IMG/VR virus record: IMGVR_UViG_3300003635_000005
Location: 1 to 50,476 of that record
Strand: one strand, 5' to 3'
DNA length: 50,476 nucleotides
Source: a virus
Lineage: Duplodnaviria > Caudoviricetes
Position 1 is the first letter of the stretch; every line of letters begins with the position of its first letter. Position numbers and translations under genes: made by a program. Positions 2,978 through 44,346 of this stretch are shown in pieces. A model generated the notes under the pieces. It searched no databases. It saw nothing but the letters and a program-made list of their open reading frames with translations, and was not told where the DNA came from.

Positions 2978-3052
2978 CACTATCTCACCAACCGATATAC
3001 TTATGGTCTCCCCTACTCAAGGGAGTGTATGGTGAGCCAAACCATGTCCGAC
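2978..3052 (+). repeat. Cassette promoter/leader repeat, copy 1
   Basis: CACTATCTCAC..CCGATA..TTATGGTCTCCCCTACTCAAGG...TATGGTGAGCCAAACCATGTCCGAC shared with copies at 12389, 35425 and 42575. Confidence 0.95.
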
Positions 3053-3658
3053 GAGAGCGAGACCGAGTTTAGCGTTGGAGACACCGTTGAGGTCCGATAT
3101 ACCGGCTCTTTCCGTGGCCGGGAGCACGTTGCGGAGGGCACCGTTGTTGAGGATCCATACCAGCACCGGAGCACGCCGGAGGGTGCGCTTGACCTTGAGT
3201 GCGTCAACGAGGACGGGGAGACCTACAAGGCCCGAGTCAAGGAGGACGGACGCTTTAGCGGTCTCCACCACGCCACGCAACGTCATGACCACCGCAAGGG
3301 GAGCGTGGAGGAGGTCACGCTCGTGGAGCCGGCGGAGACCGAGACCGAGTTGACCAACGAGTTTGACACCGTGGACGAGGCCGTGGAGGCCGCCGAGGAT
3401 CTCCACGAGGCCATGGACGAGGTGAGCGGCAAGCCGCACGTCCACGTCAAGCGGCTTGACGAGGACGCCGTGGAGACCGGCTTTGCCGAGGGAGCCGTCA
3501 CGCTCCGCCTCACCACCCGCAACACGCGGCTCTCCACGGAGGCCATGCGAGTGCTGGCGGACCACGAGGCCGAGGTGGAGTATATCGGGGAGAGCGAGAC
3601 GTGGATTGGTGAGGAGTGGCTCCTTTGGGTGCCCGTGGAGCGCCTCGCGGACAACTAA
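3029..3658 (+). CDS. Cassette cargo protein, hypothetical (SH3-like N-terminus; alternative start 3044)
   Basis: Acidic ORF starting inside repeat copy 1; GDTVEVRY..EGTV pattern. Confidence 0.75.
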   Translation: MVSQTMSDESETEFSVGDTVEVRYTGSFRGREHVAEGTVVEDPYQHRSTPEGALDLECVNEDGETYKARVKEDGRFSGLHHATQRHDHRKGSVEEVTLVEPAETETELTNEFDTVDEAVEAAEDLHEAMDEVSGKPHVHVKRLDEDAVETGFAEGAVTLRLTTRNTRLSTEAMRVLADHEAEVEYIGESETWIGEEWLLWVPVERLADN

Positions 3659-3682
3659 CCCGGCCAGCGGCTCCTTTTCGGT

Positions 3683-3715
3683 GCAAACCTCTATGTGAGA
3701 GCGCCGGCCACACTC
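3683..3715 (+). promoter_or_regulatory. Conserved restart (putative late) promoter L1
   Basis: GCAAACCTCTWTGTGAGAGCGCCGGCCACACTC, 32/33 identical to 13331-13363; core GTGAGAGCGCCG starts 25 nt before the ATG. Confidence 0.8.
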
Positions 3716-3719
3716 TCTC

Positions 3720-4457
3720 ATGCCCGAGACCACGCTCGTGGACACCAGCACGTATTACGGCACGGTGGACGAGGTGGAGACGTGGGTGCGTAACAAGGAG
3801 TTTAGCGGCACCACGGACCTCACCACCACCAACATAGAGGACAAACTCAAGAGAGCGAGTGACCGGATTGACCAACTCACCGGCAAGGCGTGGCGGGAGC
3901 GCAAGGTGGTCAATTGGGAGGTCTCTCCGTCAATCTCGCACGAGCAAAAACGATACTACAAGACGGCCCAACCTCGCTCCTCACCAGCGGGATTCATGGA
4001 GCCAATAGATCCGTGGACCCTAATCAACTTGCAAGGCCGCTTTATCAAGTCCATCACCTCGGGTGACGGAGACGCCATTGAGATCCTCCTCCCACGCGAG
4101 GCGGTGGACATTACCGACGAGGAGGGCCGTGCGGACGGGGAGTGGCACCTTGACGAGACGCAAGGCAAACTCTATGTGGACGTGGGCAACTTTGCGGTGG
4201 GTCCGGTGCGTGGTGGTGGCCTCGTGGCCCGGCCTCGCGTGCGGCTCACGTATCGGTATGGCCGTGACACAATCCCGGAGCGTATCAACGAGGCGGCAAG
4301 CAAGTGGGTGGCGGCGGATCTAATCAATACGGACTCTTACGGTGCCGTCCTCGGCGGCGGCCCGGACAACGTGCCGGACATGACCACCGGAGCGAGTGAG
4401 TTGTTTGCTGGTGCCATGGGAGTGCTCAATCAAGAGTCCGCAAAGCGGATCCTCTAA
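3720..4457 (+). CDS. Head-tail adaptor protein
   Basis: Y.TVDEV N-terminus, A...ID..TG motif, V.LTY.YG....P..I..A motif; position after MCP. Confidence 0.7.
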   Translation: MPETTLVDTSTYYGTVDEVETWVRNKEFSGTTDLTTTNIEDKLKRASDRIDQLTGKAWRERKVVNWEVSPSISHEQKRYYKTAQPRSSPAGFMEPIDPWTLINLQGRFIKSITSGDGDAIEILLPREAVDITDEEGRADGEWHLDETQGKLYVDVGNFAVGPVRGGGLVARPRVRLTYRYGRDTIPERINEAASKWVAADLINTDSYGAVLGGGPDNVPDMTTGASELFAGAMGVLNQESAKRIL

Positions 4458-4459
4458 CC

Positions 4460-5011
4460 ATGCCCGGTCAAGTTGAGTTTAACCACAACCGCTCCACGCA
4501 ACAAGAGATAATCGCTCAATTGGAGGCCGGCGGCGTGGTGACTTACACCACGGACTATGCTCACCACGTTGAATTTGACTCGTTTTGGGGAGCCTCTCCG
4601 CCGCCGTTTGAGCCGCTCCGTGCGTGGGTCCACCGCAAGTGGCCGGATCTTGACGGTGGCCTCAAGGACGCCGGACTCTCTCCGGGTATCAAGCCGGGGA
4701 GTGAGCGCCACAAGGACGGCGTGACGTGGGTGGTCATCAACTCAATCAAGTCCACGGGGATTGCTGGCGTTTTCTATGGCCGGCGCTCGTTGGATTATGG
4801 GAGATCTCGTGCGTCCGCGGTGGCCGGCAAGTATGAGGGCACCGATGACCCACGGGCCTCCTTTAAGATTGTGGAGGATATACTTGACCTCATGTTTGCC
4901 CGCTCTCAAGAGATTGTGGCCGAGGAGGCCAGCGATACCGGCAACCTCCTCCAATCCGGCCTCGTGGAGTTAGCCAACCAAATTGACGAGTTACCCACGG
5001 TGGACTCATGA
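4460..5011 (+). CDS. Neck/tail completion protein (HK97 gp10-like)
   Basis: YA.HVEF, PP..PL..WV.RK and DTGNL..S motifs; position. Confidence 0.55.
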   Translation: MPGQVEFNHNRSTQQEIIAQLEAGGVVTYTTDYAHHVEFDSFWGASPPPFEPLRAWVHRKWPDLDGGLKDAGLSPGIKPGSERHKDGVTWVVINSIKSTGIAGVFYGRRSLDYGRSRASAVAGKYEGTDDPRASFKIVEDILDLMFARSQEIVAEEASDTGNLLQSGLVELANQIDELPTVDS

Positions 5012-5481
5012 GCCTCTTTAACGTCACGTGGGACGTGGCTCCGCTGGTGCTCAACTACATTGACACCAATTGGGGCACCTTTGCCGAGTCCTCCGGGCCA
5101 GCAAAGCCGGAGAAAATCCGCCTCGTCACCGAGGACGAAAACGGCAACCCGGTCAAGGGGTGGGATCCGGCAAGCCATGACTATATCCTCATTAGCGAGA
5201 GCGGAGAGCGGACCATGGAGCCGATTGACGGCCCGAGGGACGCTTATGACCTCGGTGCCACGTGCAACGTCCGCATAACCACTCCCACCTCACGAGCGAG
5301 GCGCACGGATCTCTATGAGGAGTTGCTCGTGCTGGCAAAGCACGCACGCAAGCGGAGTGACGCCACGCCGGGCAATTGGGACACCGTTGACTATGAGCCT
5401 ATCAACGTGCCGGACGAGGACTTTCGGTGGTGGCACTTTGAGGGTGCGTGGGTTTTCTCCGCCGAGGCCCGGACAATATAG
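5008..5481 (+). CDS. Putative tail terminator protein
   Basis: 157 aa immediately upstream of the tail tube gene. Confidence 0.5.
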   Translation: MSLFNVTWDVAPLVLNYIDTNWGTFAESSGPAKPEKIRLVTEDENGNPVKGWDPASHDYILISESGERTMEPIDGPRDAYDLGATCNVRITTPTSRARRTDLYEELLVLAKHARKRSDATPGNWDTVDYEPINVPDEDFRWWHFEGAWVFSAEARTI

Positions 5482-5526
5482 GCTTGCCATAAAGGGGGGT
5501 GTTTTGAGTATATAAGGAGTTGCTAC

Positions 5527-5567
5527 TATCTCACCGGCCTTGAGATACCGCTTTGTGAGAGCGCCGG
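5527..5567 (+). promoter_or_regulatory. TATCTCA-N7-TGAGATA inverted site plus restart promoter core
   Basis: Inverted repeat at 5527-5547; CTTTGTGAGAGCGCCGG at 5551-5567 upstream of the tail tube ATG. Confidence 0.7.
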
Positions 5568-5584
5568 TGAGGAGAGAGTAAGCC

Positions 5585-6598
5585 ATGGCGGATCCATACA
5601 AGAGCGAGGACACACAATTGGCCGTGGGCACGGAGGACACTCAAGGCACCGCCGTTGCACCCACGCGGGTTTTCGGCAAGGTGGCGGAGGACGCCACCCC
5701 GCCGGACCCCGAGGTGGCATGGGAGCCAATTAGGGTCATCGGCGGAGACCGTGAGGTTTTCCAAATGCACGAGGGCCAGCACGAGTATCAAGGCGGAGAT
5801 ATACCCGTCATCCTCATTGACGGTGCGCCGCTGGCCTATGCGTTTGGGAGCGAGACCGTCAACGCGGACGAGGATCTTGACGGTGGGAGCGAGACGGGCA
5901 CCACCACCCACATACTCACGCCGAAAATGGACGGCAAGCCGCCGTCTCAAACGATTGAGGCGGTGTATTACGGACGTGGTGGCGGCACCGACTTTGTGAG
6001 GACTTTCCCCGGCGGCACCGTCAACGAGTGCGAGATCTCCACCAACAATGATGACGAGTTGACGGCCTCACTCTCATATTGGGCCATGGGAGTGACGCCG
6101 GGCACCTCCCCAACCGGATCCATCACGGTGCCCGACCGCAACCCGTGGCTCTTTTCGGACGCCGCAAGTCAACTCTCGCTCTTTGGCACGTCCTTTGCCC
6201 GGTTTGTCTCGTTTACCTATACGCTCTCCAACAACCTTGAGGAGGGCCGGTATATCGCACCGGATAGTGACCACCCGAGTGGAGACGCCAAAGATCCGTT
6301 TGAGATAACGTATGGCAACGCGGGCCACGAGTTGTCCGCCACCATTGCGGTGGAGGATAACGCTCTCTATACGGAGTTGGTCAACGGCACCGCTGGTGGT
6401 TTCACCGCGGTGATTGAGTTTGAGCGGCCCAACGGTGACAACCTCCGTATCACCCTCACCGGGTGCCAAATCACCTCCGCTCCTCACGACATACCGGCGG
6501 ACGCCAGCAAGATTGAGGTGGAGGTCTCAATCACCGTCGAGTCCGCGGAGATCCGCGTTGAAGATAGCAACTCCGCGGGCACGGGATACCTCGCATAA
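5585..6598 (+). CDS. Major tail tube protein
   Basis: E.T.GTAV.P N-terminus typical of siphovirus tube proteins; followed by chaperone and tape measure. Confidence 0.8.
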   Translation: MADPYKSEDTQLAVGTEDTQGTAVAPTRVFGKVAEDATPPDPEVAWEPIRVIGGDREVFQMHEGQHEYQGGDIPVILIDGAPLAYAFGSETVNADEDLDGGSETGTTTHILTPKMDGKPPSQTIEAVYYGRGGGTDFVRTFPGGTVNECEISTNNDDELTASLSYWAMGVTPGTSPTGSITVPDRNPWLFSDAASQLSLFGTSFARFVSFTYTLSNNLEEGRYIAPDSDHPSGDAKDPFEITYGNAGHELSATIAVEDNALYTELVNGTAGGFTAVIEFERPNGDNLRITLTGCQITSAPHDIPADASKIEVEVSITVESAEIRVEDSNSAGTGYLA

Positions 6599-6627
6599 AC
6601 CACATACCACTATACACAACTCTAACC

Positions 6628-7104
6628 ATGAGCGACAACCAGCAACTCCACGACACAACCGGCGCACCGGACGCAACCAACGAGGACGGCCTCCCACCCG
6701 CACTCCGTGACCGTATCACGGAGACTCTCGGTGAGGACGCCAATGCACGCATGGCCACGGCCAGCGAGGTCACGGTTGATGACAACAAGACCACGTGGGA
6801 GGTGATTGAGTGGGAGCAAGACGGAGAGACCGTTGTGTGGGGTGTTGAGTTGAGTGAGATCTCGTGGCAAGAGAAAAACCGGATTTTCAAGGACAACGTG
6901 AGTCAAGTGGGAGGCTCCGGGCAACTCCAAATTGACACCTATTACCGGGAGGTGGCCGAGGCCATGATTGAGTCCCATACGCTTGAGGACACCATGGGCC
7001 TCACCACAATCCTCACCGGCCTCAAGGTGGACGTTGGAGAAAAGTTGGAGCCGCACCTCCCGGATCCGGTGGGCCAACTTGAGGAGGAGGAGGCAAAAAA
7101 CTAA
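6628..7104 (+). CDS. Tail assembly chaperone (gpG-like)
   Basis: Between tube and tape measure; ends on a slippery heptamer. Confidence 0.75.
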   Translation: MSDNQQLHDTTGAPDATNEDGLPPALRDRITETLGEDANARMATASEVTVDDNKTTWEVIEWEQDGETVVWGVELSEISWQEKNRIFKDNVSQVGGSGQLQIDTYYREVAEAMIESHTLEDTMGLTTILTGLKVDVGEKLEPHLPDPVGQLEEEEAKN

Positions 7105-7454
7105 AAGCGGCTCTCCGCCGCTCAAAGCCGGATAGTTTGGAGGTCATCAAACACAAACCCATGGTAATTGAGACACTCCTCGTCAAAGAGGCCGGGTTGG
7201 ATCTCGCGGACCTCCGCGGTGAGACGGTCCACGAGACGCACGAGGAGCCACGCACGGGAGTGCTGGCATGGGTCCGCTCCAAACTCCCCGGCATGGACCG
7301 CGGCACCGTCACGCGGCACGTGAGCAAGGAGACGCCGGGCATGACGGAGCGGGAGGTGCTCCAACGGTGGCTCCTCCACAACGAGCATGAGCGCATGATT
7401 GAGGAGGCCGAAAAAGAGGCGGCCAACAAGGCGGAGAGCAAAGCGAGACACTAA
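7095..7454 (+). CDS. -1 frameshift extension of the tail chaperone (gpGT-like)
   Basis: A AAA AAC at 7095-7101 just before TAA; the -1 frame is open from there to 7454. Confidence 0.8.
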   Translation, partial: KKLKAALRRSKPDSLEVIKHKPMVIETLLVKEAGLDLADLRGETVHETHEEPRTGVLAWVRSKLPGMDRGTVTRHVSKETPGMTEREVLQRWLLHNEHERMIEEAEKEAANKAESKARH

Positions 7455-8617
7455 TGGTAACAATAGGATCTCTCACGTGGGTTGCAAAGGTTGAGGGTGC
7501 GAGTCAAGCCCAACGCAAGGCCGACAACGTGGCCGATAGTATGCAAGAGGCCGACGAAAAGGCCAGCGGACTCAACTCTCGGTTGGGTCAAACCGGCTCC
7601 CGGCTCAAGGCCGGCGGCAAGCGTGCCCGGAGCCTCGGCACTCGCATGACTCGGTTGACCGGGATTATGGGACTCGTCACCAGCGGTCTCTTTTTCCTCG
7701 GCTCTCAAGCCACCGCGGCGTGGGCCGCAATCGGCGGCTTGTCCGGCATAGTGGCAACACTCACCGGAGCGTTTTCCACCGCGGTTGGCCTCGTGAGCGG
7801 GTTTATCTCGTGGTTGGCCGCCGGGAGCGCCGGTGCCCTCGCGTTTGCTGGTGCCCTCGGTGCCGCCGTGGGGTTGTTTGTCGTTTGGATCCTCCACATA
7901 ACCGGGGTGATGGATTGGGTCCGCCGCCTCGGCCAAATGATAGGCTCCTCGCTCCCCGCGTGGGCACGTGATGGACTCACCGCTCTCATTGCAATCTTTG
8001 CCGGCCCGCTGGCCGTCATCGGCGGGTTTATCAACGGTTTCATTGAGGGCACCATGAAAGGTGGCCTCGTGCAAGGGATTAGGACCGGCGTGGAGCGTGC
8101 CAAACAAGTGTTTGATACGCTGGCCGGAGCCGTGGACCGCACCGTTGGACGTGCGGCGGACTTTATCACCAACGGTCTCTCCGGTGTTGGTGAGGCCGCC
8201 GCCGAGGGCCTAAGAGGCACCTTCAACTCCATAATCCCCGACCGTCTCAATATCCCGTCCATAACCATTGGCGGCGGGAGCGTGGCCGGTCAAGATCTCC
8301 CGAGTGCCACGATTGGTGGCGGCCACCTTGACATACCGCAACTCCAAACGGGTGGCATGATTGAGCGCACGGGTGTTTTCCTCGGTCACGCTGGTGAGCG
8401 CGTGCTCAACACCGCCGAGGTGAGCCGCACCGGCTCCGGCGGCGGCCCGGATCCGGTTGGGGGTGGCGGCGGCATGGACATAGAGATCTCCGTGGAGTTT
8501 GGAGACCAAACCCTTGACTTGTCCAACCTCACGCAAGCGGACAAGGAGGAGATTGCCCGCCTCGTGGCCGAGGAGACGGGCCGTGAGGTGGAGAGCACCA
8601 TTGGGGGTGGACTATGA
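7454..8617 (+). CDS. Tape measure protein (short, 387 aa)
   Basis: A/G-rich helical with hydrophobic stretches; C-terminal LQTGG....G..L.H.GE.VL motif; position. Confidence 0.8.
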   Translation: MVTIGSLTWVAKVEGASQAQRKADNVADSMQEADEKASGLNSRLGQTGSRLKAGGKRARSLGTRMTRLTGIMGLVTSGLFFLGSQATAAWAAIGGLSGIVATLTGAFSTAVGLVSGFISWLAAGSAGALAFAGALGAAVGLFVVWILHITGVMDWVRRLGQMIGSSLPAWARDGLTALIAIFAGPLAVIGGFINGFIEGTMKGGLVQGIRTGVERAKQVFDTLAGAVDRTVGRAADFITNGLSGVGEAAAEGLRGTFNSIIPDRLNIPSITIGGGSVAGQDLPSATIGGGHLDIPQLQTGGMIERTGVFLGHAGERVLNTAEVSRTGSGGGPDPVGGGGGMDIEISVEFGDQTLDLSNLTQADKEEIARLVAEETGREVESTIGGGL

Positions 8618-9069
8618 CCTCCACGGGTATCACGTTGGACAAAAATGACGGCACCGAGTCCTTTACGCTCAAGGTCAACAACGTCAAGGTCTCGGTGAGC
8701 AACTCCGTCATAATCAAGAGCATACTCTCCGCCGTGGGTGGCCTCGCTGGTGCCAACCCCGTGCTCTCAAAGGAGACTTACCAACTCTCGGTGGTCATCA
8801 AGGACATGGAGGCCGCCGATTATCCCAACTCGGGCACCTACTCCGTCACTCCCAACACCCACGCTTATGGCCAGCACAACGAGTTGCTCCGGGCCGCTCG
8901 TGAGTGGGGGCCAACCACCGCGGACGGCCTTGACACCCTCAACTATGATGGACGGAGCATTGGTGGTGTCATATCGGATCTCCAATTGAGCGAGGACCGC
9001 ACGAGCGACAACCAGCGGCAATACACCGGCACGTTGGAGTTTACTCACTTTGACGTTTACATAGGGTGA
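8614..9069 (+). CDS. Putative distal tail protein
   Basis: 151 aa directly after the tape measure gene. Confidence 0.5.
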   Translation: MTSTGITLDKNDGTESFTLKVNNVKVSVSNSVIIKSILSAVGGLAGANPVLSKETYQLSVVIKDMEAADYPNSGTYSVTPNTHAYGQHNELLRAAREWGPTTADGLDTLNYDGRSIGGVISDLQLSEDRTSDNQRQYTGTLEFTHFDVYIG

Positions 9070-9076
9070 TATTGCT

Positions 9077-10528: not shown

Positions 10529-10529
10529 C

Positions 10530-11397: not shown

Positions 11398-12390
11398 ATG
11401 CCACAAATCACGGAGCAAGTTGCGAAAAATCGAGAGAGCACGCGGCGGCTTGACGGGAGGTTTGTTGACCTCCCGGAGACGGCCAACCGCAATCTCTCAT
11501 TTGCCCGCAACACCATAGAGATCTCCGTCACCATTGAGATATACAAGCGGAGCCTCAATGACTCGCTTATCTCGGGCCACCCGGATCCGTCTCACGGGAG
11601 TGGCCGAGGCGTGGCCGGAGACGTGCGTGGCTCATGGTCCGCCGTGAGCACCACCACCCAAAGCGCACTCTTTGTCCGTGCTGGCCGCAACGCCGTCCGT
11701 GACTCGCTTGATGGACAAGCGGGAGCGGTGCGTGAGGGTGCCGTGGGCACCTCGTCCACGGACGCCTCGGTTGGAGATACGGCTCTCGCGGCGGAGACCG
11801 GGAGCACGCTGGCCTATGGTGTCAAGGACGCCGGCAACGTCACGCGGGCACGCTCCAACTATCTCTTTGCCGAGGACGGCCTCGGGAGCACGGACGCCGT
11901 GGAGTTTGGTGTTAAGGACGAGGATGACCGGCTCCTCGCACGAGTCACCACGGACGCCGTGGACGTGAGCGAGAGTGAGGAGTTGCGGGTGGACATATCG
12001 TTGGAGGTCAACGGCTCCGGCGTGGGTAACTCCGTCATCACCAATGACGGTGAGGCGGCCATTGCGGACTCGCTCCGTGCGATTGGAGACGTGGTGGGTA
12101 TCAACGAGATCCGCTTTGGCACCGGCTCCACGGCGGCCAGCAAGTCGGACTCGGCCCTCGGCAACGAGGAGTATGCTCAAAACGCACTCCGCACGCTCTC
12201 CAACGAGTCCATAGCGGCGGAGGTGGTCACGGACGCCTCGCAACCGTCCACGCAACCCGTGGATCTCACGGAGATTGGCGTGTTTGACAACGCCAGCACG
12301 CCGCGGCTCTTGTGGCGGACCACCATGGATCCGTTGGAGAAAACGGACGCTTTCGGCTTTCGCACAACGGTCTCTTTCCGCATAGTGTAA
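11398..12390 (+). CDS. Tail/baseplate protein with duplicated domain
   Basis: Two copies of G..A..D.L....G.GT......DT.L..E...E.G..D....L. Confidence 0.55.
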   Translation: MPQITEQVAKNRESTRRLDGRFVDLPETANRNLSFARNTIEISVTIEIYKRSLNDSLISGHPDPSHGSGRGVAGDVRGSWSAVSTTTQSALFVRAGRNAVRDSLDGQAGAVREGAVGTSSTDASVGDTALAAETGSTLAYGVKDAGNVTRARSNYLFAEDGLGSTDAVEFGVKDEDDRLLARVTTDAVDVSESEELRVDISLEVNGSGVGNSVITNDGEAAIADSLRAIGDVVGINEIRFGTGSTAASKSDSALGNEEYAQNALRTLSNESIAAEVVTDASQPSTQPVDLTEIGVFDNASTPRLLWRTTMDPLEKTDAFGFRTTVSFRIV

Positions 12391-12470
12391 CCTCGCACTA
12401 TCTCACACTCCGGTATCTTTATGGTCTCCCCTACTCAAGGAGTAGTATGGTGAGCCAAACCATGTCCGAC
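12389..12470 (+). repeat. Cassette promoter/leader repeat, copy 2
   Basis: 12409-12469 identical over 61 bp to 35435-35495. Confidence 0.95.
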
Positions 12471-12812
12471 AAGACCGAGACCGCAACCACGCTCCCCGGA
12501 GCGTGCGCTCTCCTCAACGAGGAGCACGAGATACCCGCCGCACTCGCGGAGGCCCTTGACTCGCTTGACGTGCCCGCCGGAGCCGCCGGTTGCAACGGGT
12601 GCGTGGCCGCCAGCATGGACGAGGCGTTTGTCTATTACGTGGCCCAAAGCGAGGAGCACGTGGAGCGTCCGCGTTATATCAAATTCCACGCCGATGACGA
12701 GGCCGACAAGGCGGCCCTCGCTGGCCAACTCGTCCACGCACTCAATGACGCCGGCCTCGGGGTGGAGTGGGGTGGAGACCTCGGCACCGCCGTGAGGGTC
12801 CACTATGAGTAA
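12447..12812 (+). CDS. Cassette cargo protein, hypothetical (alternative start 12462)
   Basis: Starts MVSQTMSD within repeat copy 2; CxxC. Confidence 0.7.
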   Translation: MVSQTMSDKTETATTLPGACALLNEEHEIPAALAEALDSLDVPAGAAGCNGCVAASMDEAFVYYVAQSEEHVERPRYIKFHADDEADKAALAGQLVHALNDAGLGVEWGGDLGTAVRVHYE

Positions 12813-13173
12813 GCAAGAGCGAGTCCGTGAGGATCTCGGTGCGTGCAACGCTGGTGACGTGCTCCGCCTCACCACCGATGACGGAGAGGCATACAAGGCG
12901 CACGTTGTGGACTCGGTGGACTATATCCCCGGTGGCTCCGGTGAGGGCCACTTGTCCACCTCCCTTGAGTTGGACACCGAGGAGCACGCCGTGCCCGAGG
13001 ACTTTGATACGTGCTCCGTCTCGCTCCACGCCAGCGAGACTTACACCGAGTGGCGTGACGTGACCATTGCCGTTTGGGAGCCGGAGGTGGACGAGTCCGG
13101 CCATATCACGGAGGACCATTACCGCTCCCTCGGCACCGTCACGGACGTGGAGGTGGTGGAGCGCCATGAGTGA
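12805..13173 (+). CDS. Cassette cargo protein, hypothetical
   Basis: Acidic ORF overlapping the upstream stop; GDVLRL pattern. Confidence 0.7.
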   Translation: MSKQERVREDLGACNAGDVLRLTTDDGEAYKAHVVDSVDYIPGGSGEGHLSTSLELDTEEHAVPEDFDTCSVSLHASETYTEWRDVTIAVWEPEVDESGHITEDHYRSLGTVTDVEVVERHE

Positions 13174-13297
13174 GTGCCGCAACGGGCAAGAGCGGTGCGG
13201 CGGCCCGTGGGGTGCGGATCTCCCGTGCTTTGCGTGCTACATGGACCGTCACCGTGCGCTCGTGCCCGTCTCCTCGGCCAGCACCGAGGCCGCTTAA
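13166..13297 (+). CDS. Cys-rich microprotein
   Basis: 43 aa MSECRNGQERC..CFAC; overlapping start; T-run follows at ~13315. Confidence 0.55.
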   Translation: MSECRNGQERCGGPWGADLPCFACYMDRHRALVPVSSASTEAA

Positions 13298-13330
13298 GTA
13301 GTAACTAACCCCGTTTTTTATCGGCGTGAG

Positions 13331-13363
13331 GCAAACCTCTTTGTGAGAGCGCCGGCCACACTC
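13331..13363 (+). promoter_or_regulatory. Conserved restart (putative late) promoter L2
   Basis: 32/33 identical to 3683-3715; same spacing to the ATG. Confidence 0.8.
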
Positions 13364-13367
13364 CTCT

Positions 13368-17203: not shown

Positions 17204-17232
17204 CCAGCACTTGCCATGAGTTATGGTCTCAC

Positions 17233-17283
17233 TATCTCACTCTCCGGTAACTATAAGGCCCAACAATCTCATAGGGTGAGATA
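17233..17283 (+). promoter_or_regulatory. TATCTCAC-class promoter with downstream inverted GTGAGATA
   Basis: TATCTCAC tct CCGGTA acTATAAG ... GTGAGATA (17276-17283). Confidence 0.75.
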
Positions 17284-17325
17284 AGCGAGAGCGGCGGCCC
17301 GAGACCGTCCGCCTCGTGGAGACCA

Positions 17326-23706: not shown

Positions 23707-24168
23707 ATGAGCGCAAGCAAAGGCTCACGAGTGGAGCGCGAGTTGGTCAACCTACTCCTTGACCTCGGGTTTGAGATTATGCGGGCACCGTCCTCGGGAG
23801 CGGCCACGTCACGAGATCTCCCGGACGTGCTGGCCGGCAACGGTGACGGACTCATTGTGGCCGTGGAGTTGAAAGCGTGGAAAGACGGCACGCACTACTT
23901 TGACGAGGAGGAGGTGGCCGCTCTCCAACGGTTTGCAAACGGTTTTCACCCGGACACCGTGCCGCTCCTCGGCACCCGGTGGAATCAAGACACTCGGTTT
24001 TACGTTGCGAGGCCGGACGCCGAGGCGCTCCACCGGACGGACTCGGGCAACGTGCGTGCGAAAAAGGAGGTGGCCCGCGAGGAGTGGGAGACGTTGGAGG
24101 ACTATGTGAGCCGCAATTGGGAGGGTCTCCGTGACCACCAGCACTCTCAATCTCACTCTCCGGTATAA
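23707..24168 (+). CDS. hjc: Archaeal Holliday junction resolvase
   Basis: KG.R.ERELV..L...GF...RAPSSG....LPDVLAG.....AVELK, the Hjc PD-(D/E)xK signature. Confidence 0.92.
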   Translation: MSASKGSRVERELVNLLLDLGFEIMRAPSSGAATSRDLPDVLAGNGDGLIVAVELKAWKDGTHYFDEEEVAALQRFANGFHPDTVPLLGTRWNQDTRFYVARPDAEALHRTDSGNVRAKKEVAREEWETLEDYVSRNWEGLRDHQHSQSHSPV

Positions 24169-24173
24169 TTAAG
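24149..24173 (+). promoter_or_regulatory. TATCTCAC-class promoter of the vWA gene
   Basis: AATCTCAC tct CCGGTA TAATTAAG. Confidence 0.75.
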
Positions 24174-24210
24174 AGGCTCCTTACCCAACGTCCGGGTGAG
24201 TTGAGCCACA

Positions 24211-27830: not shown

Positions 27831-27851
27831 TTAACGGCTCCCCGTCCTCCG

Positions 27852-27876
27852 TATCTCACTATCCGGTATAACTAAG
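27852..27876 (+). promoter_or_regulatory. TATCTCAC-class promoter of the AAA+ gene
   Basis: TATCTCAC tat CCGGTA TAACTAAG. Confidence 0.75.
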
Positions 27877-27913
27877 TAGGTCCGTGCTAAACAAGCGAGT
27901 GGATTGAGCCACA

Positions 27914-35310: not shown

Positions 35311-35424
35311 CTTTAGCACTCTCCGCCGTTTATACAAAGCCCTTGAAAGCGTGGAGCACCTCGCTCGTGCCCGCTCGTGCCGTCTCGCTTAGTTGCTCCG
35401 GTGTCCTTAGCACTATCACGCACG

Positions 35425-35495
35425 TATCTCACCGTCCGGTATCTTTATGGTCTCCCCTACTCAAGGAGTAGTATGGTGAGCCAAACCATGTCCGA
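35425..35495 (+). repeat. Cassette promoter/leader repeat, copy 3
   Basis: 61 bp identical to copy 2. Confidence 0.95.
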
Positions 35496-36546
35496 TGACC
35501 GCACCGCCGACGAGATCCGTGCCGACGTGCTCCGTGCCGCACGCAACGCACTCAAGAATCACTCAAGTGACGCCACCAGCGGAGCGAGTTACAACAAGCG
35601 CCGTGCCGCGGAGAAAGCGTTTGACGCCGCCATGGCCGCACTCCGGCCCGTGCCCGTGGACGAGAGACCGGACGGCCTCGTGGAGTGCGTTGACCAACTC
35701 ACGAGTCTTGCCCGCCACGAGAGCCGGAGCAAGGCCGAGGAGGCCCTCACGGACGCCGTGGCCGAGTGCCTCACGCGGAGCATGGAGGACGAGGACGGTG
35801 AGTGGGTCCACGTGGAGGACGCCGAGGATCTCTTTGAGCGTGGTGACGAGATAACCGTGCGATACCGAGAGCACTCCGGCGGAGCCGACGAGGAGCCGGG
35901 TGAGTGGGTCAAAGTCACCGGCACCGTCCGCAAGAACGTGCCGCGTGGTGCTGGTGGCCTATGGGTCACTATTGAGGAGGACACCCACCGCGAGTCATGG
36001 CGAAAACTCCACCGCGTGCCCGGCGGCACCGTCACCGGCACCCACCCATACGGCAACCGCAAGGTCCGCAAGGGCCTCCGGGCCAAAGTCCTCCTCCCCG
36101 AGGACGAGGACGAGAGCGAGGATGACGAGGACGCCAGCGAGGAGGAGCACAAGGCCGTCACGGACGGCGGCACCGTCACCGAGGAGAGCGAGGCCATGAG
36201 CACCGTGCCCGAGTGCGTTGTGTGCCACCGGCCTCCGTGCGGACCCACCGAGGGCCTTGAGAGCGTGGACGAGTCCGCCGTGGACCCCTCCAACCGCCAC
36301 CACAACTCCAACCTCGTGGACACCAGCGAGTCACCCGAGGGCACCGTTTGGGTTTGCTCCACGTGCCGTGACGTGCTCCACGCCGAGGGGGAGACCGTGC
36401 GAGTGTGCCACCACAAACTCTCCGTCAAGGAGGAAAACCCGGACTCTTACACCCTCGCGGGTGAGGTGGCCGGTGTCCACCAGCACGTCACCGCCACCAA
36501 ACAGCACGTCCACCAGCAACTCACGGACGCCGAGGTGGATCTATGA
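35473..36546 (+). CDS. Cassette cargo protein, multi-domain (helical + SH3-like + zinc finger)
   Basis: Starts MVSQTMSD; GDEITVRY..TGTV; CVVC..CSTC. Confidence 0.75.
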   Translation: MVSQTMSDDRTADEIRADVLRAARNALKNHSSDATSGASYNKRRAAEKAFDAAMAALRPVPVDERPDGLVECVDQLTSLARHESRSKAEEALTDAVAECLTRSMEDEDGEWVHVEDAEDLFERGDEITVRYREHSGGADEEPGEWVKVTGTVRKNVPRGAGGLWVTIEEDTHRESWRKLHRVPGGTVTGTHPYGNRKVRKGLRAKVLLPEDEDESEDDEDASEEEHKAVTDGGTVTEESEAMSTVPECVVCHRPPCGPTEGLESVDESAVDPSNRHHNSNLVDTSESPEGTVWVCSTCRDVLHAEGETVRVCHHKLSVKEENPDSYTLAGEVAGVHQHVTATKQHVHQQLTDAEVDL

Positions 36547-36632
36547 GCCGCCTCGTGGCCGTCACCGCCGGCCTATACGTCCTCAACGTGGGCCTCGGCA
36601 CGGTGGCCGTCCTCCTTGCGGCACTCGCATAG
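36543..36632 (+). CDS. Hydrophobic 29-aa peptide
   Basis: ATGA overlap; MSRLVAVTAGLYVLNVGLGTVAVLLAALA. Confidence 0.45.
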   Translation: MSRLVAVTAGLYVLNVGLGTVAVLLAALA

Positions 36633-36731
36633 AGCCACCAGCACTCTCCTCCTCCCCTCCCTTTCCCCCGCACCCCCTATCCCTCCCCTCCACCTCACGG
36701 GCCACCACCACGCCGCCAGCGGCCCGCACGT

Positions 36732-36768
36732 GGGGTTATACACCCGCTTGAGACGGGGTTATACACCC
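36732..36768. repeat. Direct repeat GGGGTTATACACCC x2
   Basis: 36732-36745 and 36755-36768, 23-bp period. Confidence 0.85.
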
Positions 36769-36898
36769 ACCCTTGAGCCGCCTCTATAACCGGGCCTCGT
36801 CAAGGCCGGGCCTCGCACGCACGCGCAATTAGCGGGCCACCTCGGCCAGCGGGCAACCTCTTTACCCTCGCGTTATCAAGGGTTATGCAAGAGCACCC

Positions 36899-40916: not shown

Positions 40917-42571
40917 CCAACCGGAGGATAGGGGCCTCCGCAACGCCACGGTGTATGGCTTTGAGCCGCTTGAGTGGCAAGACCCCTTTATCCACACAAC
41001 GGCCCGCGAGGTGTTGGGGAGCGGCGCTTTCGGATCCGGTAAGAGCCGGGCACTCAACGAGCGTGGCGTGCTCTTGAGCATAGCCTATCCGGGCAATATC
41101 GGCCTCCTCACCCGTAACACGCTCAAGGCACTCCGCAACACCACGTTGGAAAACCTCCGCAACGAGGTGCTCCCTCGCTCGTGGATTATCCCGGAGTTGA
41201 CCAACCAGCAAAAGCAAGTCATTGCAATCCAATCCCCGCTTTACCCGGCCTCATATTGCCCGGAGTGTGGCCACGAGAGTGAGCGGCGCACGCACGAGGA
41301 GACGGTGGAGTGTCCGGCGTGCCACGAGGCGCTCCTTGAGGCGGTGCCGGCCTCACTAATCTATTATGACGGCCTCCAAACCACCGATGACGCCGACATA
41401 CCGGAGAATATCCTAAGCCTTGAGTTGGGGTGGATTGGCGTGGACGAGGCAAAGGACATTGAGGAGAGCGCGTGGAAAGCCCTCAACGGACGGCTCCGGT
41501 TGGAGCGCCTCAACAATCCGTATGTGCCGGAGTTGCCCTTTCGCACCATTTTCGGCACCACCAACCCGGCGGATCCTAACCATTGGCTCCACAAGCGATT
41601 TTATGAGGACGGCGTGGGGGAGTATTACGAAAGCGAGACCACGGACAACCTCGCAAATCTCCCCGATGACTATTTGCAAACGCTCAAGGAGCAATATGGT
41701 GAGGACACCAGCGAGGCGCTCCGGTATATCCGCGGCAAGTGGACGGGATACTCCGGCCTCGTGTTTGACGAGTTTAAGGACGAGATCCACCTCGTTGAGC
41801 CGTTGGACGTGCCGGAGATCCTCGGTGACGGGTGGACAGGAGGAGTTAGAGGCCAACGAGCAAGAGGTGAGTGAGCAAGTCGGGGTGCCCAACAAGCCGG
41901 GCCAATACACTCCGGCCCGAGTGTATCCTCCCGAGGACGCCAGCATACTCATGGCGATTGATTGGGGATATAGGCCGGACCCACTCGTGGTCCAATGGTG
42001 GGCACTCACCGAGACCCACGGCTTTGTGCTATATCGGGAGTGGTTCAAGAGCCGAGTGCTCCCCGATGACGCCGCACGGGAGTGCATGGATCTCATGGAG
42101 CCGTATGAGTGCAACAACGTGGTCCGGTGCTATGCGGACCATGATAGTGGAGACCGTGAGAGTTGGCTCAAGGGTGCCCGCGAGTATGTCAACGAGGGAG
42201 TGGAGGAGGGCCGGTGGGAGGGAGACACCAGCAAGCCGGATTGGCGGCGGGTGCAAACCACCGCCGCCGCAAAGGACCGGGAGAAAGGCGTGCAAGAGGT
42301 CAAGCGCCGCATGAGGCCGGACAAGCACAACCGGGCCGAGGTCCACCTCGTCAAGGGAGCGCGTGCTCACCAAATTGACCGGCAACTCAACTCCGCGGAC
42401 AAGCCGGGCCGCACCCTCGCGGAGATCCGCGGGTATGGGTATGAGGACGAGGATAGTGACAACCCGCAAGACGGCAATGACCACGGTGTTGACACCATGC
42501 GGTATTGCATTTACTCCCACCGTAAGAAGGGACGCACCAGCGGATCCGGCTCCTCCGTCATCAAGAGTTAG
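40900..42571 (+). CDS. terL: Terminase large subunit with zinc-ribbon insertion; frame broken at ~41835
   Basis: Walker A G.GAFGSGKS, Walker B IGVDEA and TTNP in the first frame; nuclease AIDWG and DHGVD..RY in the +1 frame. Confidence 0.9.
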
Positions 42572-42574
42572 TGC

Positions 42575-42643
42575 AACCTCGCACTATCTCACTCTCCGGT
42601 ATCTTTATGGTCTCCCCTACTCAAGGGATTGTATGGTGAGCCA
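42575..42643 (+). repeat. Cassette promoter/leader repeat, copy 4
   Basis: AACCTCGCACTATCTCAC.CTCCGGTATCTTTATGGTCTCCCCTACTCAAGG...GTATGGTGAGCCA. Confidence 0.95.
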
Positions 42644-44057
42644 CAACACCAACGCGGACGAGGAGGAGACGCTTGAGGAGCCAATCAAGATCCGGTGGAC
42701 GGGCAAGGCCCGTGACCGCCTCGGCGGGTGGGCACTTGACTTTGCCAACGCCGACGAGGACAACGGCATGGAGGCTTACGTGCGTGCGGACTCACGGCAA
42801 AAGACCAACGTGGTGCTTGAGACCGTGGAGGAGGCCGAGGCCGTTGCTGGTTTCATGAATAAGGTCATCGGTGAGGGTGGAGACTATGGCCGCACGTGGG
42901 TCAACGGAGCCGTGGACAACGCGGGCCAGCGAGTCCGCCGCGAGATTGTTGACGCCATGGCGGAGCGAGGGTTTGAGGTCTCCAACCTCACCAGCGTTTA
43001 CGGCCTCGCGTTTGAGGAGGCCGAGGAGCCGGACGTGGACGTGGAGGAGGGAGACACCGTGATTGACGAGGCCCATGACGTGACGGGCAACGTCACCGGC
43101 GTGGACGGCAACACCGTCCACGTGGAGTTTACCAACGGCGTGACCTCCGCCACCACCGTCTCGGGCCTCCTTGACGAGAGCAACCCGTGGACGCACGTGC
43201 CCGCCGAGGCGGACGAGGAGCCGGAGATCCGCACGGACGGCGGCGTGGCCACCGAGGAGGAGCGAGAGCCGGACGAGGCGGACGTGGACGTGCCGTGCGA
43301 GGAGGGAGACCGCGTGGCCGTTGAATACCACTCCGCTCACGTGGACCGCCGCAAGATCCTCGTGGGGAGCGTCAAGGAGGTGGTGCTCAAGGGAGCGCCG
43401 CGAGACGGAGAGTGGGTGGCCATGCTGGCGGAGATCTATGTCCGGCCCGAGGAGGGCCACCGCAATGACCGGAGTGAGCATTACACCGAGACCACGCGGA
43501 GCGCCATGCGCCGCGTGACGTGGGAGATTGAGGAGGACGAGGACCGCGGGTGGCACTCCGTGGAGGCCCGCAACGGCCTCCGGTGGAATAGGGTCAACGA
43601 GACCGGCACCCGGACGGAGATCTCCGTGCTGGCCGAGGACGAGGAGCCGCCGCACCCGGACAACGGCGTGGTGCTGGCGGTGGGCCTCCGGTGTCATCGG
43701 TGCAACGGCACCTCGTGCAAGGAGGTCACGGACCCCGAGACGGAGCCGCTCACGGGCACGCGGTGGGCTTGCCCTCATTGCCACGAGATTGATGACGAGA
43801 GCGGTGCCGAGATTGGCCAGCAATATGAGATCCTCGGGTGCAAGCCGGTCTCGCACGTGGACACCTCGTGGTCTCTCGCGGAGCACGAGGCGTTGGAGTG
43901 GGCCGCCTCACCAACGCGGTGGAGGGCTTTCACCGAGACGGTGCTCAAGGGCCGCAAGGCCACGGCCTATGCCGATGACGTGGACGTGACGCCGGGCACG
44001 GTTTACCGGCACGTGCATGACGCTCGTGAGGTGCTCAAGGGTGGTCTCAATGAGTGA
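42633..44057 (+). CDS. Cassette cargo protein, multi-domain (two SH3-like, zinc ribbon, C-terminal HTH)
   Basis: Starts MVSH in repeat copy 4; GDTV/GDRV modules; CHRC..CPHC; A...DV.PGTV.RHV..AR HTH-like tail. Confidence 0.75.
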   Translation: MVSHNTNADEEETLEEPIKIRWTGKARDRLGGWALDFANADEDNGMEAYVRADSRQKTNVVLETVEEAEAVAGFMNKVIGEGGDYGRTWVNGAVDNAGQRVRREIVDAMAERGFEVSNLTSVYGLAFEEAEEPDVDVEEGDTVIDEAHDVTGNVTGVDGNTVHVEFTNGVTSATTVSGLLDESNPWTHVPAEADEEPEIRTDGGVATEEEREPDEADVDVPCEEGDRVAVEYHSAHVDRRKILVGSVKEVVLKGAPRDGEWVAMLAEIYVRPEEGHRNDRSEHYTETTRSAMRRVTWEIEEDEDRGWHSVEARNGLRWNRVNETGTRTEISVLAEDEEPPHPDNGVVLAVGLRCHRCNGTSCKEVTDPETEPLTGTRWACPHCHEIDDESGAEIGQQYEILGCKPVSHVDTSWSLAEHEALEWAASPTRWRAFTETVLKGRKATAYADDVDVTPGTVYRHVHDAREVLKGGLNE

Positions 44058-44316
44058 GCACGTCACCGCGGAGGTCCGCGAGGACATTAGTGCGGCCCTC
44101 GGCCCGCTCATGGAGGAGGACGTGGAGGAGTTGCGGTTGGAGGATCTTGAGCACGCCATGGAGGCCATGGACGCCGTGCGCTCCCGCGGCGTGAGCACGG
44201 ACAATGGCCTCCTCGTCAAGGCGGCGGAGCACGTGCAAGAGCAAGTCCGCGAGGAGTTGGTGCGCCGCCAGCGTGAGCGGCACGAGCGTGACGCCGAGGC
44301 GGGCCGCCAGCGGTAA
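44050..44316 (+). CDS. Hypothetical helical protein (cassette cargo)
   Basis: Overlapping start. Confidence 0.6.
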   Translation: MSEHVTAEVREDISAALGPLMEEDVEELRLEDLEHAMEAMDAVRSRGVSTDNGLLVKAAEHVQEQVREELVRRQRERHERDAEAGRQR

Positions 44317-44330
44317 GGCCGGACTAACAC

Positions 44331-44346
44331 TTACGTGAGAGCGCCG
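44331..44346 (+). promoter_or_regulatory. Restart promoter core TTACGTGAGAGCGCCG
   Basis: Same 12-mer core as L1/L2, 26 nt before ATG 44361. Confidence 0.7.

Follow-up and report, generated by a model that had tools for sequence, protein, structure and literature searches.

The window, meaning the whole 50,476-bp stretch of DNA analyzed here, is a complete haloarchaeal tailed-virus genome. Its nearest named relatives are HCTV-2 and HHTV-2, and the virus is a siphovirus near Saparoviridae. A Pfam scan of 71 ORFs yielded no integrase and a prophage state is not evident, while the sole Rfam match is a tRNA-Gln gene at 35238-35311. Four unrelated groups of accessory genes in this genome are each preceded by a copy of a header block of ~70 to 95 bases, called R here, in which a promoter-like part is joined to the start of a gene. 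The four copies (R1 to R4), the genes behind them (the R cargo), and one nearby accessory gene are as follows:

2448..2972, + strand: g04, a four-CxxC zinc-ribbon accessory gene, header-less in this genome
2970..3065, + strand: R1 header, with ATCTCAC at 2982, CCGATA, and the TATA-like ACTTATGG, followed by the first codons of g05
3029..3658, + strand: g05, the R1 cargo, 209 aa, with a C-terminal part resembling a gene in the HCTV-2 variable block
12388..12483, + strand: R2 header, ATG at 12447, with the 5' flank AACCTCGCACT common to R4
12447..13297, + strand: R2 cargo, comprising g17 (12447-12812, DUF6891 tail), g18 (12805-13173), and a 43-aa CxxC ORF (13166-13297)
13298..13320, + strand: stops in several frames (TAAGTAGTAACTAA) behind the R2 cargo, then CCCCG and a run of six T
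35414..35509, + strand: R3 header, ATG at 35473, in the non-structural region ~100 nt 3' of the tRNA-Gln gene
35473..36632, + strand: R3 cargo, comprising g53 (35473-36546, 357 aa, CxxC pairs) and an overlapping 29-aa hydrophobic ORF (36543-36632)
42574..42669, + strand: R4 header, ATG at 42633, directly 3' of the TerL stop and without a second in-frame ATG
42633..44316, + strand: R4 cargo, comprising g67 (42633-44057, 474 aa, CxxC pairs) and g68 (44017-44316, 99 aa)

A repeat search recovered R as one family of four 96-nt copies, with 73-85% identity to copy 1. The 21-mer TATGGTCTCCCCTACTCAAGG occurs four times, always on the + strand (3002, 12420, 35446, and 42606), against an expectation of 0.00 and with none of 100 shuffles reaching four, and all four copies enter ATGGTGAGCCA. 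In R2, the TTTAT motif starts at 12418, ahead of the ATG at 12447. The likeness between copies extends 23-40 nt into coding sequence that is otherwise unrelated, and the cargo proteins show no mutual relatedness beyond residues 1-12, that is, apart from the header. R2 and R3 share an unbroken identical run of 61 nt that covers positions differing in R1 and R4. The copies are mosaic: besides this run, R2 has the 5' flank of R4 and the 12 initial codons of R1. Only R2 and R3 preserve the inverted repeat CTACTC-AAG-GAGTAG, which R1 and R4 have in broken form; its arms would pair in a 6-bp stem located 3' of the TATA box and 5' of the start. A preliminary description of this sequence had reported the ~70-bp element at four places, the 61-bp identity of copies 2 and 3, the restriction of the inverted repeat to those copies, and cargo of one to three mostly unrelated genes, all of which we recovered, with R2 having three genes when the 43-aa CxxC ORF is counted. 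Three cassettes (R1, R2, and R4) do interrupt the structural module, as that description has it; R3 lies outside the module and follows the tRNA-Gln gene.

Neighboring R copies are 7-23 kb apart with essential genes between them, and each cassette has R on its left only, the right side being a class II header (see below) or other DNA. No terminator-like feature was found upstream of R at any of the four copies. Behind the cargo, a terminator-like run of six T follows only the R2 genes; a run of four follows g05 and none follows g68. Third-position GC content (GC3) is 0.79-0.87 in the six larger R-cargo genes and 0.70-0.75 in the seven structural genes measured, with a value of 0.667 for the 43-aa ORF (g18b).

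Two classes of intergenic header

The four R copies are a sub-family of seven + strand intergenic sites, class I, that share ATCTCAC-N3-CCGGTA and a TATA-like box; the upstream half of R thus also occurs at 17234, 24150, and 27853. The class I word has eight matches in the window where 0.95 are expected, a count reached in 0 of 100 shuffles, with seven on the + strand, all intergenic, and one with two mismatches on the - strand at 5546. The AT-rich box keeps a fixed distance from CCGGTA in 7/7 class I sites, and 3' of it lies a conserved GGTGAG/TGAGCCA region, in which start sites were predicted from spacing only. The motif TGAGCCAMAM has nine matches (0.29 expected), seven of them on the + strand and each of these at a gene start; its distance to the ATG varies by gene, and it is always near the predicted message start. 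The second minus-strand copy of this 10-mer sits inside a gene at 18534. The other intergenic headers of the genome are:

17227..17325, + strand: class I site without the R tail, reading ATCTCACTCTCCGGTA, then ACTATAAGG, then GTGAGATAAGCGAGAGCGGCGG; heads g23 (17326-18471)
24143..24210, + strand: class I site heading a VWA-domain gene (24211-26391), leader GGTGAGTTGAGCCACA
27846..27913, + strand: class I site heading an AAA ATPase gene (from 27914), leader end TTGAGCCACA
3680..3719, + strand: class II header before g06, reading GCAAACCTCTAT, GTGAGAGCGCCG, GCCACACTCTCTC, then ATG
5555..5566, + strand: class II 12-mer of the tail-tube gene, with ATCTCAC and a canonical TATATAAG box (5509) upstream of it
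13328..13367, + strand: class II header of the baseplate gene, differing little over ~40 nt from the copy at 3680
44335..44346, + strand: class II 12-mer before g69 (virion-protein homolog), with the same 5' flank, GACTAACACTTA, as in the related locus L011

Class II is defined by GTGAGAGCGCCG, which is present in exactly four copies, all on the + strand (3695, 5555, 13343, and 44335); at up to one mismatch 0.52 are expected, and four or more were found in 1 of 100 shuffles. Three copies follow the R1, R2, and R4 cassettes, as the preliminary description had noted in proposing that cassettes end directly before this element. The copy at 5555 follows no cassette. GTGAGAGCGCCG is nevertheless ruled out as a cassette end, because the cassette-less locus L011 has the close form TTGAGAGGGCCG ahead of its g06 homolog and because one copy heads the tube gene. 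It makes up a second class of repeat, one belonging to the structural genes.

Cargo sites in relatives and metagenome variants

Among the related loci covering the three structural-module sites, the R cargo is missing in all. No g05 homolog was found at the R1 site (0 of 10 loci), nor g17 and g18 at the R2 site (0 of the 4 loci covering it), and TerL and portal are adjacent in 2/2 loci (HCTV-2 and HHTV-2). Two of the ten related loci covering its site contain g04, and in L011 the g06 homolog lies 55 nt 3' of the g04 homolog. In L010, the g16 homolog and the baseplate gene are adjacent with 67 nt between them, and HCTV-2 and HHTV-2 have 11 and 8 minus-strand genes, respectively, at the R2 site. 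The absence of these genes at the same sites in every related locus covering them bears out the earlier view of the cassettes as inserts. Both header motifs are absent from HCTV-2 and HHTV-2, and the header motifs are likewise absent from the IMG/VR relatives L003-L011 and present in near-identical metagenome variants with changed cargo; across the virus group, as compared in HCTV-2, HHTV-2, and L003-L011, neither the repeats nor their positions are conserved. The 21-mer TATGGTCTCCCCTACTCAAGG was absent from IMG/VR, JGI metagenome contigs, and genome contigs.

The near-identical variants differ from the window where the repeats lie, with a single contig for each case. A contig of metagenome X3 has an empty R1 site, in which 2967 is joined to 3673, 705 nt are skipped, and R1 and g05 are missing. 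The depth at this joint (54.5) is close to that of neighboring contigs (55.3 and 56.9), and the g05-bearing X3 contig has a depth of 11.3. As both breakpoints are outside R, a unit inserted or lost as a whole seems a better description of the difference than a crossover within R. The R1 unit is bordered by short TAACC(C)GG words, at 2969 and 3655. Record 10 of X12 matches 2241-3056 and 3644-4126, with 395 unmatched nt between where the window has 587, and records 26 and 27 of X8 stop and start at the same two places. The 395-nt stretch is 192 nt short of the window, a multiple of three; a shorter, divergent allele of g05, instead of different cargo, may account for it.

The points at which variant contigs diverge from the window (3051, 3056, and 3068) fall on the 3' edge of the repeat. 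The reading frame is kept in a joint from 3051 to 12853 (34 nt between) and in joints from 3068 to 2505 or 2499 (23 or 17 nt between), although each joint comes from one contig with short sides (21-30 nt where given) at an 85% threshold, and such joints may stem from other organisms or repeats. The metagenome joints suggest that header-fused forms of g04 exist elsewhere; the protein collection, with 11 relatives of g04 and 3 of g18, yielded no header-fused g04 or g18 protein. Six homologs of g05 resemble it from right 3' of the header onward, and of these one starts with MVSQTMSDES, two with MVNHN as in R4, two with MHATHKTD, and one otherwise. Different cargo behind the same repeat and empty sites in relatives, both anticipated in the preliminary description, are thus seen in the in-frame joints, the X3 empty site, and the other headers of g05 homologs. 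With the header in frame on other gene bodies and g05 homologs under other headers, the cargo is not fixed and syntenic, as it would be if the preliminary proposal were wrong. The wider proposal of a plug-in accessory system gains partial support, from the inserts and the header exchange, and loses its GTGAGAGCGCCG cassette end.

Readings of the header

We consider it probable that R represents the long version of an archaeal promoter class specific to the virus, and that it has been spread and homogenized by recombination, with cargo lost, replaced, or re-headed. Class I, with its seven members, would drive early or middle genes. Its upstream word, ATCTCAC-N3-CCGGTA, is probably a factor-binding site beside the BRE, and would be followed by the TATA-like box and, 24-27 nt on, by a start region built on GGTGAGCCA. 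For the four R copies the predicted transcript start is on the ATG or at most 7 nt before it, which would make the message leaderless, so that the start region of the promoter and the first 8-12 codons (MVSQTMSD... or MVSHN...) would be the same DNA. Both the promoter role claimed earlier for the repeat, with which the archaeal geometry agrees, and the claim that it carries first codons, which this TATA-to-ATG spacing would fix, fit such an arrangement. Predicted leaders of ~15-50 nt at the three non-R sites indicate that the class is not uniformly leaderless. R would give accessory genes their own expression, with three of the gene groups standing, moron-like, at transcription-unit boundaries within an otherwise late structural module. 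Copying and gene conversion, among the copies or among co-infecting relatives, may spread the block and keep it uniform, and its recombination would allow cargo to be lost, replaced, or re-headed in frame. The header itself would then be the place of crossover, and new cargo would automatically join the regulon. Promoter activity, start site, and timing of class I are here predictions from sequence, and the sequencing runs listed include no RNA dataset. The restriction of the T-run to the R2 cargo counts against this explanation, as does the finding that BRE-like purines are not evident.

Less probable, though the strongest of the alternatives, is that R is a regulon signal only, read by one factor and the transcription machinery, and that cassettes move by illegitimate recombination at operon boundaries, which tolerate inserts, with the repeat taking no part in gene movement. 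Both ends of the empty-site joint (2967 and 3673) lie outside R, the TAACC(C)GG words at 2969 and 3655 fit insertion by microhomology, and the same three sites vary in distant relatives wholly without R. The repeats of the halovirus HF2 are also conserved in place among relatives and are discussed as regulatory (PMC8707807). However, selection on a signal alone sits poorly with the 61-nt R2/R3 identity and the mosaic flanks, which point to recent copying or conversion, with a likeness reaching 23-40 nt into unrelated coding sequence, and with variants whose divergence from the window starts at the repeat's 3' edge (3051, 3056, and 3068) and preserves the frame.

Two further readings involve an additional feature of the genome:

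27696..27755, - strand: inverted, partly deleted header copy, reading GGATTGTTAGGTGAGCCACAATGCAC ... CATGTCCGACAACACCG

This copy matches R4 at 22/24 nt, the 24150 leader at 19/20, and R2 at 16/17. Its inversion makes the + strand here complementary to the starts of class I messages, TTGTGGCTCACC being the complement of GGTGAGCCACAA in R4 and TTGTCGGACATG that of CATGTCCGACAA in R2. Predicted duplexes with the seven class I starts average 7.3 kcal/mol stronger than those with 52 other gene starts, a difference unmatched by any of 300 random 71-nt windows. The region also folds better than shuffles, with z = -3.6 on the + strand and -3.3 on the - strand.

In the bolder of the two readings, which we regard as doubtful, the header is an active in-frame re-heading module, and antisense RNA from the inverted 27.7-kb copy pairs with all these message starts and switches the whole regulon off late in infection. 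Since promoter start and first codons coincide in leaderless archaeal messages, any gene joined to the ~70 to 95-bp block by recombination within it would enter the class I regulon and acquire the same N-terminal residues. If true, an archaeal virus would possess a regulon that extends itself and has its own off switch.

More unlikely still, the conserved part may act mainly as RNA, as an antisense target, or as peptide, as an N-terminal functional tag. In the RNA version, the message 5' end GGUGAGCCA(C/A)A(A/C) would be targeted by antisense RNA from 27.7 kb that jointly shuts off class I messages, a possibility in keeping with the complementarity to the header, the stronger class I duplexes (equaled by 0 of 300 random windows), the better-than-shuffled fold, and a motif that stays near the predicted message start even as its distance to the ATG varies. 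Against this, an inverted header copy with a partial deletion accounts for the complementarity in full; the two strands fold equally well; Rfam matches only the tRNA; the 10-mer's other minus-strand copy sits inside a gene (18534); and the upstream ATCTCAC-CCGGTA and TATA part is left unexplained. The sRNA target site proposed in the preliminary description is therefore real as complementarity, and the header copy accounts for it.

It is very improbable that repeats caused false short-read joins and that the cassette positions are an assembly artifact: contigs of the best-matching run do break at repeats, and none among the matches listed spans the whole 20 kb, but g04 is contiguous with R1 and the header in X12 record 10 and X8 record 26, a g18 protein is on record on a 50,545-nt contig, junction reading frames are all intact, and the TerL and g16 stops abut R4 and R2 cleanly.

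Comparison with known systems and significance

The layout favored here, of promoter-like repeats heading accessory genes, is already known in kind, and the closest systems are the HF2 promoter repeats, the PeSL-like motifs of HGTV-1, and morons. Morons of lambdoid phages are extra genes between structural genes, with their own promoter and terminator and deviant base composition. The R cassettes are similar in that structural genes adjacent in relatives are separated by one to three additional genes, with their own promoter-like signal, in one case a terminator-like T-run, and a GC3 unlike that of their neighbors. They differ from morons in that no prophage state is evident, all inserts have the same header, and the host is archaeal.

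In HF2, class I repeats have a TATA box that begins at -26 from mapped start sites, and 9/9 intergenic repeats tested drove a reporter (PMC8707807). HF2 and the window virus each have multi-copy intergenic repeats of two classes that are confined to a single virus group; one class lies among genes that are early or middle (a predicted timing in the window), the other among those for morphogenesis. Both have an AT-rich TATA box ~26 nt before the start (predicted in the window), a conserved start region, an upstream conserved word thought to bind a regulator, and seven class I copies. No sequence homology is established between the two, HF2 belonging to Hafunaviridae. The HF2 repeats, as described there, are conserved in place among relatives, whereas the R-headed cargo varies between near relatives of the window virus; R also reaches 8-12 codons into genes, and three R copies are inside the structural module. 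The HF2 promoters were assayed and their starts mapped, whereas those of the window are predicted from sequence.

PeSLs are promoter-early stem-loops of T4-type phages (Arbiol et al, 2010; PMC2839356), and PeSL-like motifs are reported before most ORFs of one arm of the halovirus HGTV-1 (PMC3950731). PeSLs resemble R as repeated blocks of ~100 bp with a strong early-type promoter (predicted for R) right before ORFans, tied to genes that differ between close relatives, with a few copies also inside virion modules, and proposed as preferred recombination sites that bring their own expression signals. The two differ in several respects: the PeSL promoter is of sigma-70 type and that of R of predicted archaeal TATA type; the stem-loop of R is intact in 2/4 copies, with a 6-bp stem and no evident terminator function; R has four long copies (seven in the wider class) against ~50 in PeSL phages; and a PeSL ends at the start codon, whereas R continues into coding sequence. 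Because R is on one side of the cassettes only, PeSL-type excision as mini-circles between neighboring copies is not expected.

The seven class I and four class II headers should define the transcription units of the window virus, and the motifs point to the likely true starts of at least eight genes, which is of use in annotation. To our knowledge, little is known about gene timing, or about the gain and loss of accessory genes, in haloarchaeal tailed viruses. Three accessory inserts of the window virus occupy hot spots in the structural module that also vary in HCTV-2 and HHTV-2, and public metagenomes contain natural variants in which the cargo appears to be missing, replaced, or re-headed. 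If the headers are both promoters and crossover sites, modular shuffling of the kind proposed for T4-type phages and HGTV-1 would also operate in archaeal siphoviruses, where leaderless expression would drag a few codons along with the promoter.

Genome and gene content

The window's 50,476 bases make up the whole genome of the record, with a GC content of 0.615, credible genes all on the plus strand, and very acidic encoded proteins. Among named viruses, HCTV-2 and HHTV-2, two Haloarcula viruses of the Saparoviridae, are the closest, at 64% capsid identity. Together with the gene content, these nearest named relatives identify the window as a circularly permuted haloarchaeal siphovirus genome.

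Genes assigned with Pfam and PHROGs (plus strand)
49707 to 931, across the window ends: head protease gene
928-2127: major capsid protein
5585-6598: tail tube
Tail chaperones and tape measure protein
13368-14930: baseplate protein
23707-24168: Hjc
VWA protein, AAA ATPase, and TerL
46123-48543: portal

TerL (40951-42568) aligns in two frames, with residues 11-309 of HCTV-2 TerL matching 40951-41835 and residues 320-554 matching 41846-42568, and therefore has an apparent frameshift at ~41835-41846, whether genuine or caused by an indel in the assembly. The block from g23 to Hjc (17326-24168) is flanked here by two class I promoter-like sites (17234 and 24150); in HCTV-2 (L001, 38835-46611) and HHTV-2 (L002, 40200-49864), the entire block is encoded on the strand opposite to that of the structural genes. 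The 261 nt at 30778-31038 contain no genes, combine an AT-rich near-palindrome with short tandem units (CTACTACTACTAACTAATAAAGTAGTAAGTAAGTAAGTAAGTAAG), and could be an origin, packaging site, or control site. The sole RNA family match in the genome is a tRNA-Gln gene (anticodon TTG) at 35238-35311, ~100 nt 5' of header copy R3. The g03 slot (2140-2403) holds a different gene in the two closest capsid relatives, loci L003 and L011 (98% and 80% identity), where the small post-capsid genes (L003 3820-4145, L011 926-1269) gave no tblastn match to g03. A 255-aa minus-strand ORF (26967-27734) was dropped as a candidate because its GC by codon position is the mirror image of that in g37, a gene with homologues.

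Class I and class II repeats at gene starts

The class I header is built from ATCTCAC, CCGGTA, an AT box, and GGTGAGCCA, and in its four long copies, R1 to R4, a promoter-like block runs on into the first codons of a gene.

Class I sites (plus strand)
2970: R1, heading g05
12388: R2, heading g17, g18, and g18b, a 43-aa CxxC ORF
35414: R3, heading g53
42574: R4, heading g67 and g68
17234: site heading g23
24150: site heading the VWA gene
27853: site heading the AAA ATPase gene

A preliminary description had placed a repeat at four positions, and all four copies are present: the R family is 96 nt long, and the 21-mer TATGGTCTCCCCTACTCAAGG occurs four times in the window versus 0 expected. R2 and R3 share the identical run of 61 nt that had been claimed for them, and the small inverted repeat attributed to this pair is intact in R2 and R3 only. 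As a terminator, the CTACTC/GAGTAG hairpin was dropped because it is not conserved. The upstream half of the header (ATCTCAC-N3-CCGGTA, then an AT-rich box at a fixed distance) is also found at 17234, 24150, and 27853, and the class I word has eight matches versus 0.95 expected, seven of them intergenic on the plus strand and one a weak minus-strand match. TGAGCCA(A/C)A(A/C) occurs nine times (0.29 expected), and its seven plus-strand copies are all at gene starts, namely those of the four R genes and those at 24211, 27914, and 36899. The gene at 36899, which encodes an HTH domain, starts ATGAGCCACAAC, a form of the header motif that lacks the upstream class I word. Between this gene and the R3 cargo, a long region devoid of genes (36633-36898) has a C/T-rich run and GGGGTTATACACCC in two direct copies. 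Searches of IMG/VR, JGI metagenome contigs, and GTDB genome contigs found no exact copy of the 21-mer. Twenty single matches to TATCTCACNNNCCGGTAT in IMG/VR were taken as chance because none continue like the header and their GC ranges from 0.33 to 0.59, and CTAACC, with nine occurrences at about chance level, was dropped as an enriched boundary word.

In archaeal promoters, the TATA box lies ~26 nt upstream of the start site. R2 has its TTTAT motif from 12418 onward and its ATG at 12447, a spacing that predicts a start at 12440-12447, on the ATG or a few bases before it. Near its ATG, R4 has no further in-frame start codon, and translation therefore probably begins at the first ATG. With the predicted start on or near the ATG, the same DNA would serve as the promoter's start region and as the first codons, which would explain why otherwise unrelated proteins have MVSQTMSD or MVSHN in common. 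The class I header is thus a predicted promoter with a leaderless start at the R copies, while the three short class I sites have predicted leaders of ~15-50 nt. For the halovirus HF2, the TATA-to-start distance has been mapped, and nine of nine tested intergenic repeats gave reporter activity (PMC8707807).

Structural genes are headed by a different element, the class II 12-mer GTGAGAGCGCCG, which occurs exactly four times in the window, 25 nt upstream of the ATG of g06 and of the baseplate gene, 26 nt upstream of that of g69, and 30 nt upstream of that of the tube gene. The g06 and baseplate copies have ~40 nt in common. Cassette-free L011 has TTGAGAGGGCCG at the equivalent place before its g06 homologue, where the 5' flank matches that of the copy at 44335, and therefore the class II element belongs to the structural genes. 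Three of the cassettes had been described as ending directly before a restart promoter; they do lie directly 5' of GTGAGAGCGCCG, at unit boundaries, but the element itself is part of the structural genes' own equipment. GTGAGAGCGCCG is the putative core element of a group of late promoters; a weak TATA-like word, CTCTWT, lies just 5' of it. Before the tail-tube gene (5509-5584), a strong canonical TATA box is followed ~12 nt on by ATCTCACCG, an arrangement conserved in L011 (4290-4352) and L004 (4470-4540); ATCTCAC thus lies downstream of the TATA box there and upstream of it at class I sites.

The plus strand of 27696-27755 is complementary to the class I header and the predicted message starts. 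Pairing is predicted to be 7.3 kcal/mol stronger with the seven class I starts than with 52 other gene starts, a difference reached by 0 of 300 random windows, and 27690-27830 folds better than shuffled sequence on both strands (z -3.6 and -3.3). The complementarity behind the proposal that the headers carry an sRNA target is real, but the minus strand of this segment reads as a header copy that has lost an internal part and gained an insertion, and it matches R4 at 22 of 24 nt, the 24150 leader at 19 of 20, and R2 at 16 of 17. The segment may be a rearrangement relic, may give rise to antisense RNA against g37, or may encode a trans-acting RNA.

Cassette sites, header swaps, and metagenome variants

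The preliminary description had proposed looking in related genomes for other cargo or empty sites, and in every related locus that spans one of the three sites the cargo is missing. Site A is bounded by the capsid gene and g06; a g05 homologue is found there in 0 of 10 related loci that cover the site. The neighbouring zinc-ribbon gene g04 (2448-2972) has a homologue there in two of the 10 (HHTV-2 and L011), and in L011 the g06 homologue follows 55 nt on. Site B is bounded by g16 and the baseplate gene, and g17 and g18 are found there in 0 of 4 covering loci: the flanking genes are 67 nt apart in L010, ~1 kb of other DNA separates them in L009, and HCTV-2 and HHTV-2 have 11 and 8 small minus-strand genes, respectively. 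The sole g05-like sequence of HCTV-2 is inside this block (42% identity, 88 residues). Both named relatives have TerL directly next to portal at site C; the g69 homologue follows the portal gene in three of three loci and precedes it in the window. GC3 is 0.79-0.87 in the six larger R-cargo genes versus 0.70-0.75 in seven measured structural genes, and 0.667 in the 43-aa g18b. On these sequence comparisons, the cassettes are insertions, and the sites that contain them are variable. In IMG/VR, the baseplate and portal proteins retrieved no related loci, and a major capsid protein query of metagenome contigs returned one 2-kb locus that ends short of the cassette sites. Searches of Pfam, PHROGs, PADLOC, and NCBIfam yielded no usable cargo function apart from zinc-ribbon/CxxC hints, a DUF6891 tail in g17, and a PHROG without assigned function for g05, and a protein atlas gave no usable match to g67 or g53.

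A protein search found six g05 relatives. MVSQTMSDES opens one of them (95% identical), MHATHKTDGGED opens two (77% and 71%), and MVNHN, resembling the MVSHN of R4, opens another two (62% and 61%); the sixth begins differently. In every relative, likeness to g05 sets in directly after the header. Judged by these protein starts, headers appear to swap on the same cargo.

A 10-kb stretch or part of it is present in 20 public runs from 12 studies, none of those listed being an RNA run, with at least half of the sampled words in seven; contigs from four of these seven (X1, X3, X8, and X12) were placed on 1-20000 at ≥85% likeness. An empty site, as had been sought, is seen in one X3 contig, which joins 2967 to 3673 with 15 other letters between and skips R1 and g05. 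Its depth is 54.5 (neighbours 55.3 and 56.9), versus 11.3 for the contig that holds g05. Record 10 of X12 matches 2241-3056 and 3644-4126 and has 395 unmatched letters versus 587 in the window, and records 26 and 27 of X8 stop and start at the same two breakpoints. Because the 192-nt length difference is a multiple of three, what replaces g05 in X12 may be an allele of it that has diverged and become shorter. Joints from a header to other genes, also anticipated earlier, were found in X1 (3051 to 12853, 34 letters between) and X12 (3068 to 2505 and 2499, with 23 and 17 letters between). Computed from coordinates, the reading frame is kept in all three kinds of joint, giving the header plus g18 from codon 17 or plus g04 from codon 20 or 18. 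However, each joint is supported by a single contig with short sides, and header-fused proteins were absent among 11 g04 and three g18 relatives from the protein search. Contig depths at 12438 add up to 652.8 for X1 and 403.1 for X3 versus ~50-110 elsewhere, a figure that is not copy number. Public metagenome contigs thus appear to show cargo loss, replacement, and in-frame re-heading.

Almost no contigs from X3, X8, and X12 cover 14675-16675 (g20 and g21, after the baseplate gene), with the rest of 1-20000 covered. The g20 and g21 products are likely fibre or receptor-binding proteins, and this looks like a swapped host-recognition region.

Relation to known systems

The closest system is that of HF1 and HF2, which have a pair of promoter-carrying intergenic repeat classes (PMC8707807). 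The idea that such repeats also shuffle genes comes from T4-type PeSLs (PMC2839356) and, according to PMC3950731, has already been extended to halovirus HGTV-1. PeSLs are defined by a terminator stem-loop and by repeats flanking a cassette on either side; in contrast, the R copies have no evident terminator stem-loop and the cassettes here lack the second repeat. The cassettes share with morons their insertion between neighbouring genes and unlike base composition. The original observation of repeat-headed cassettes is confirmed, and its interpretation is partly supported. The interest of the system lies in a header that extends into coding sequence and in contigs in which cargo has apparently been lost, replaced, or re-headed in frame.
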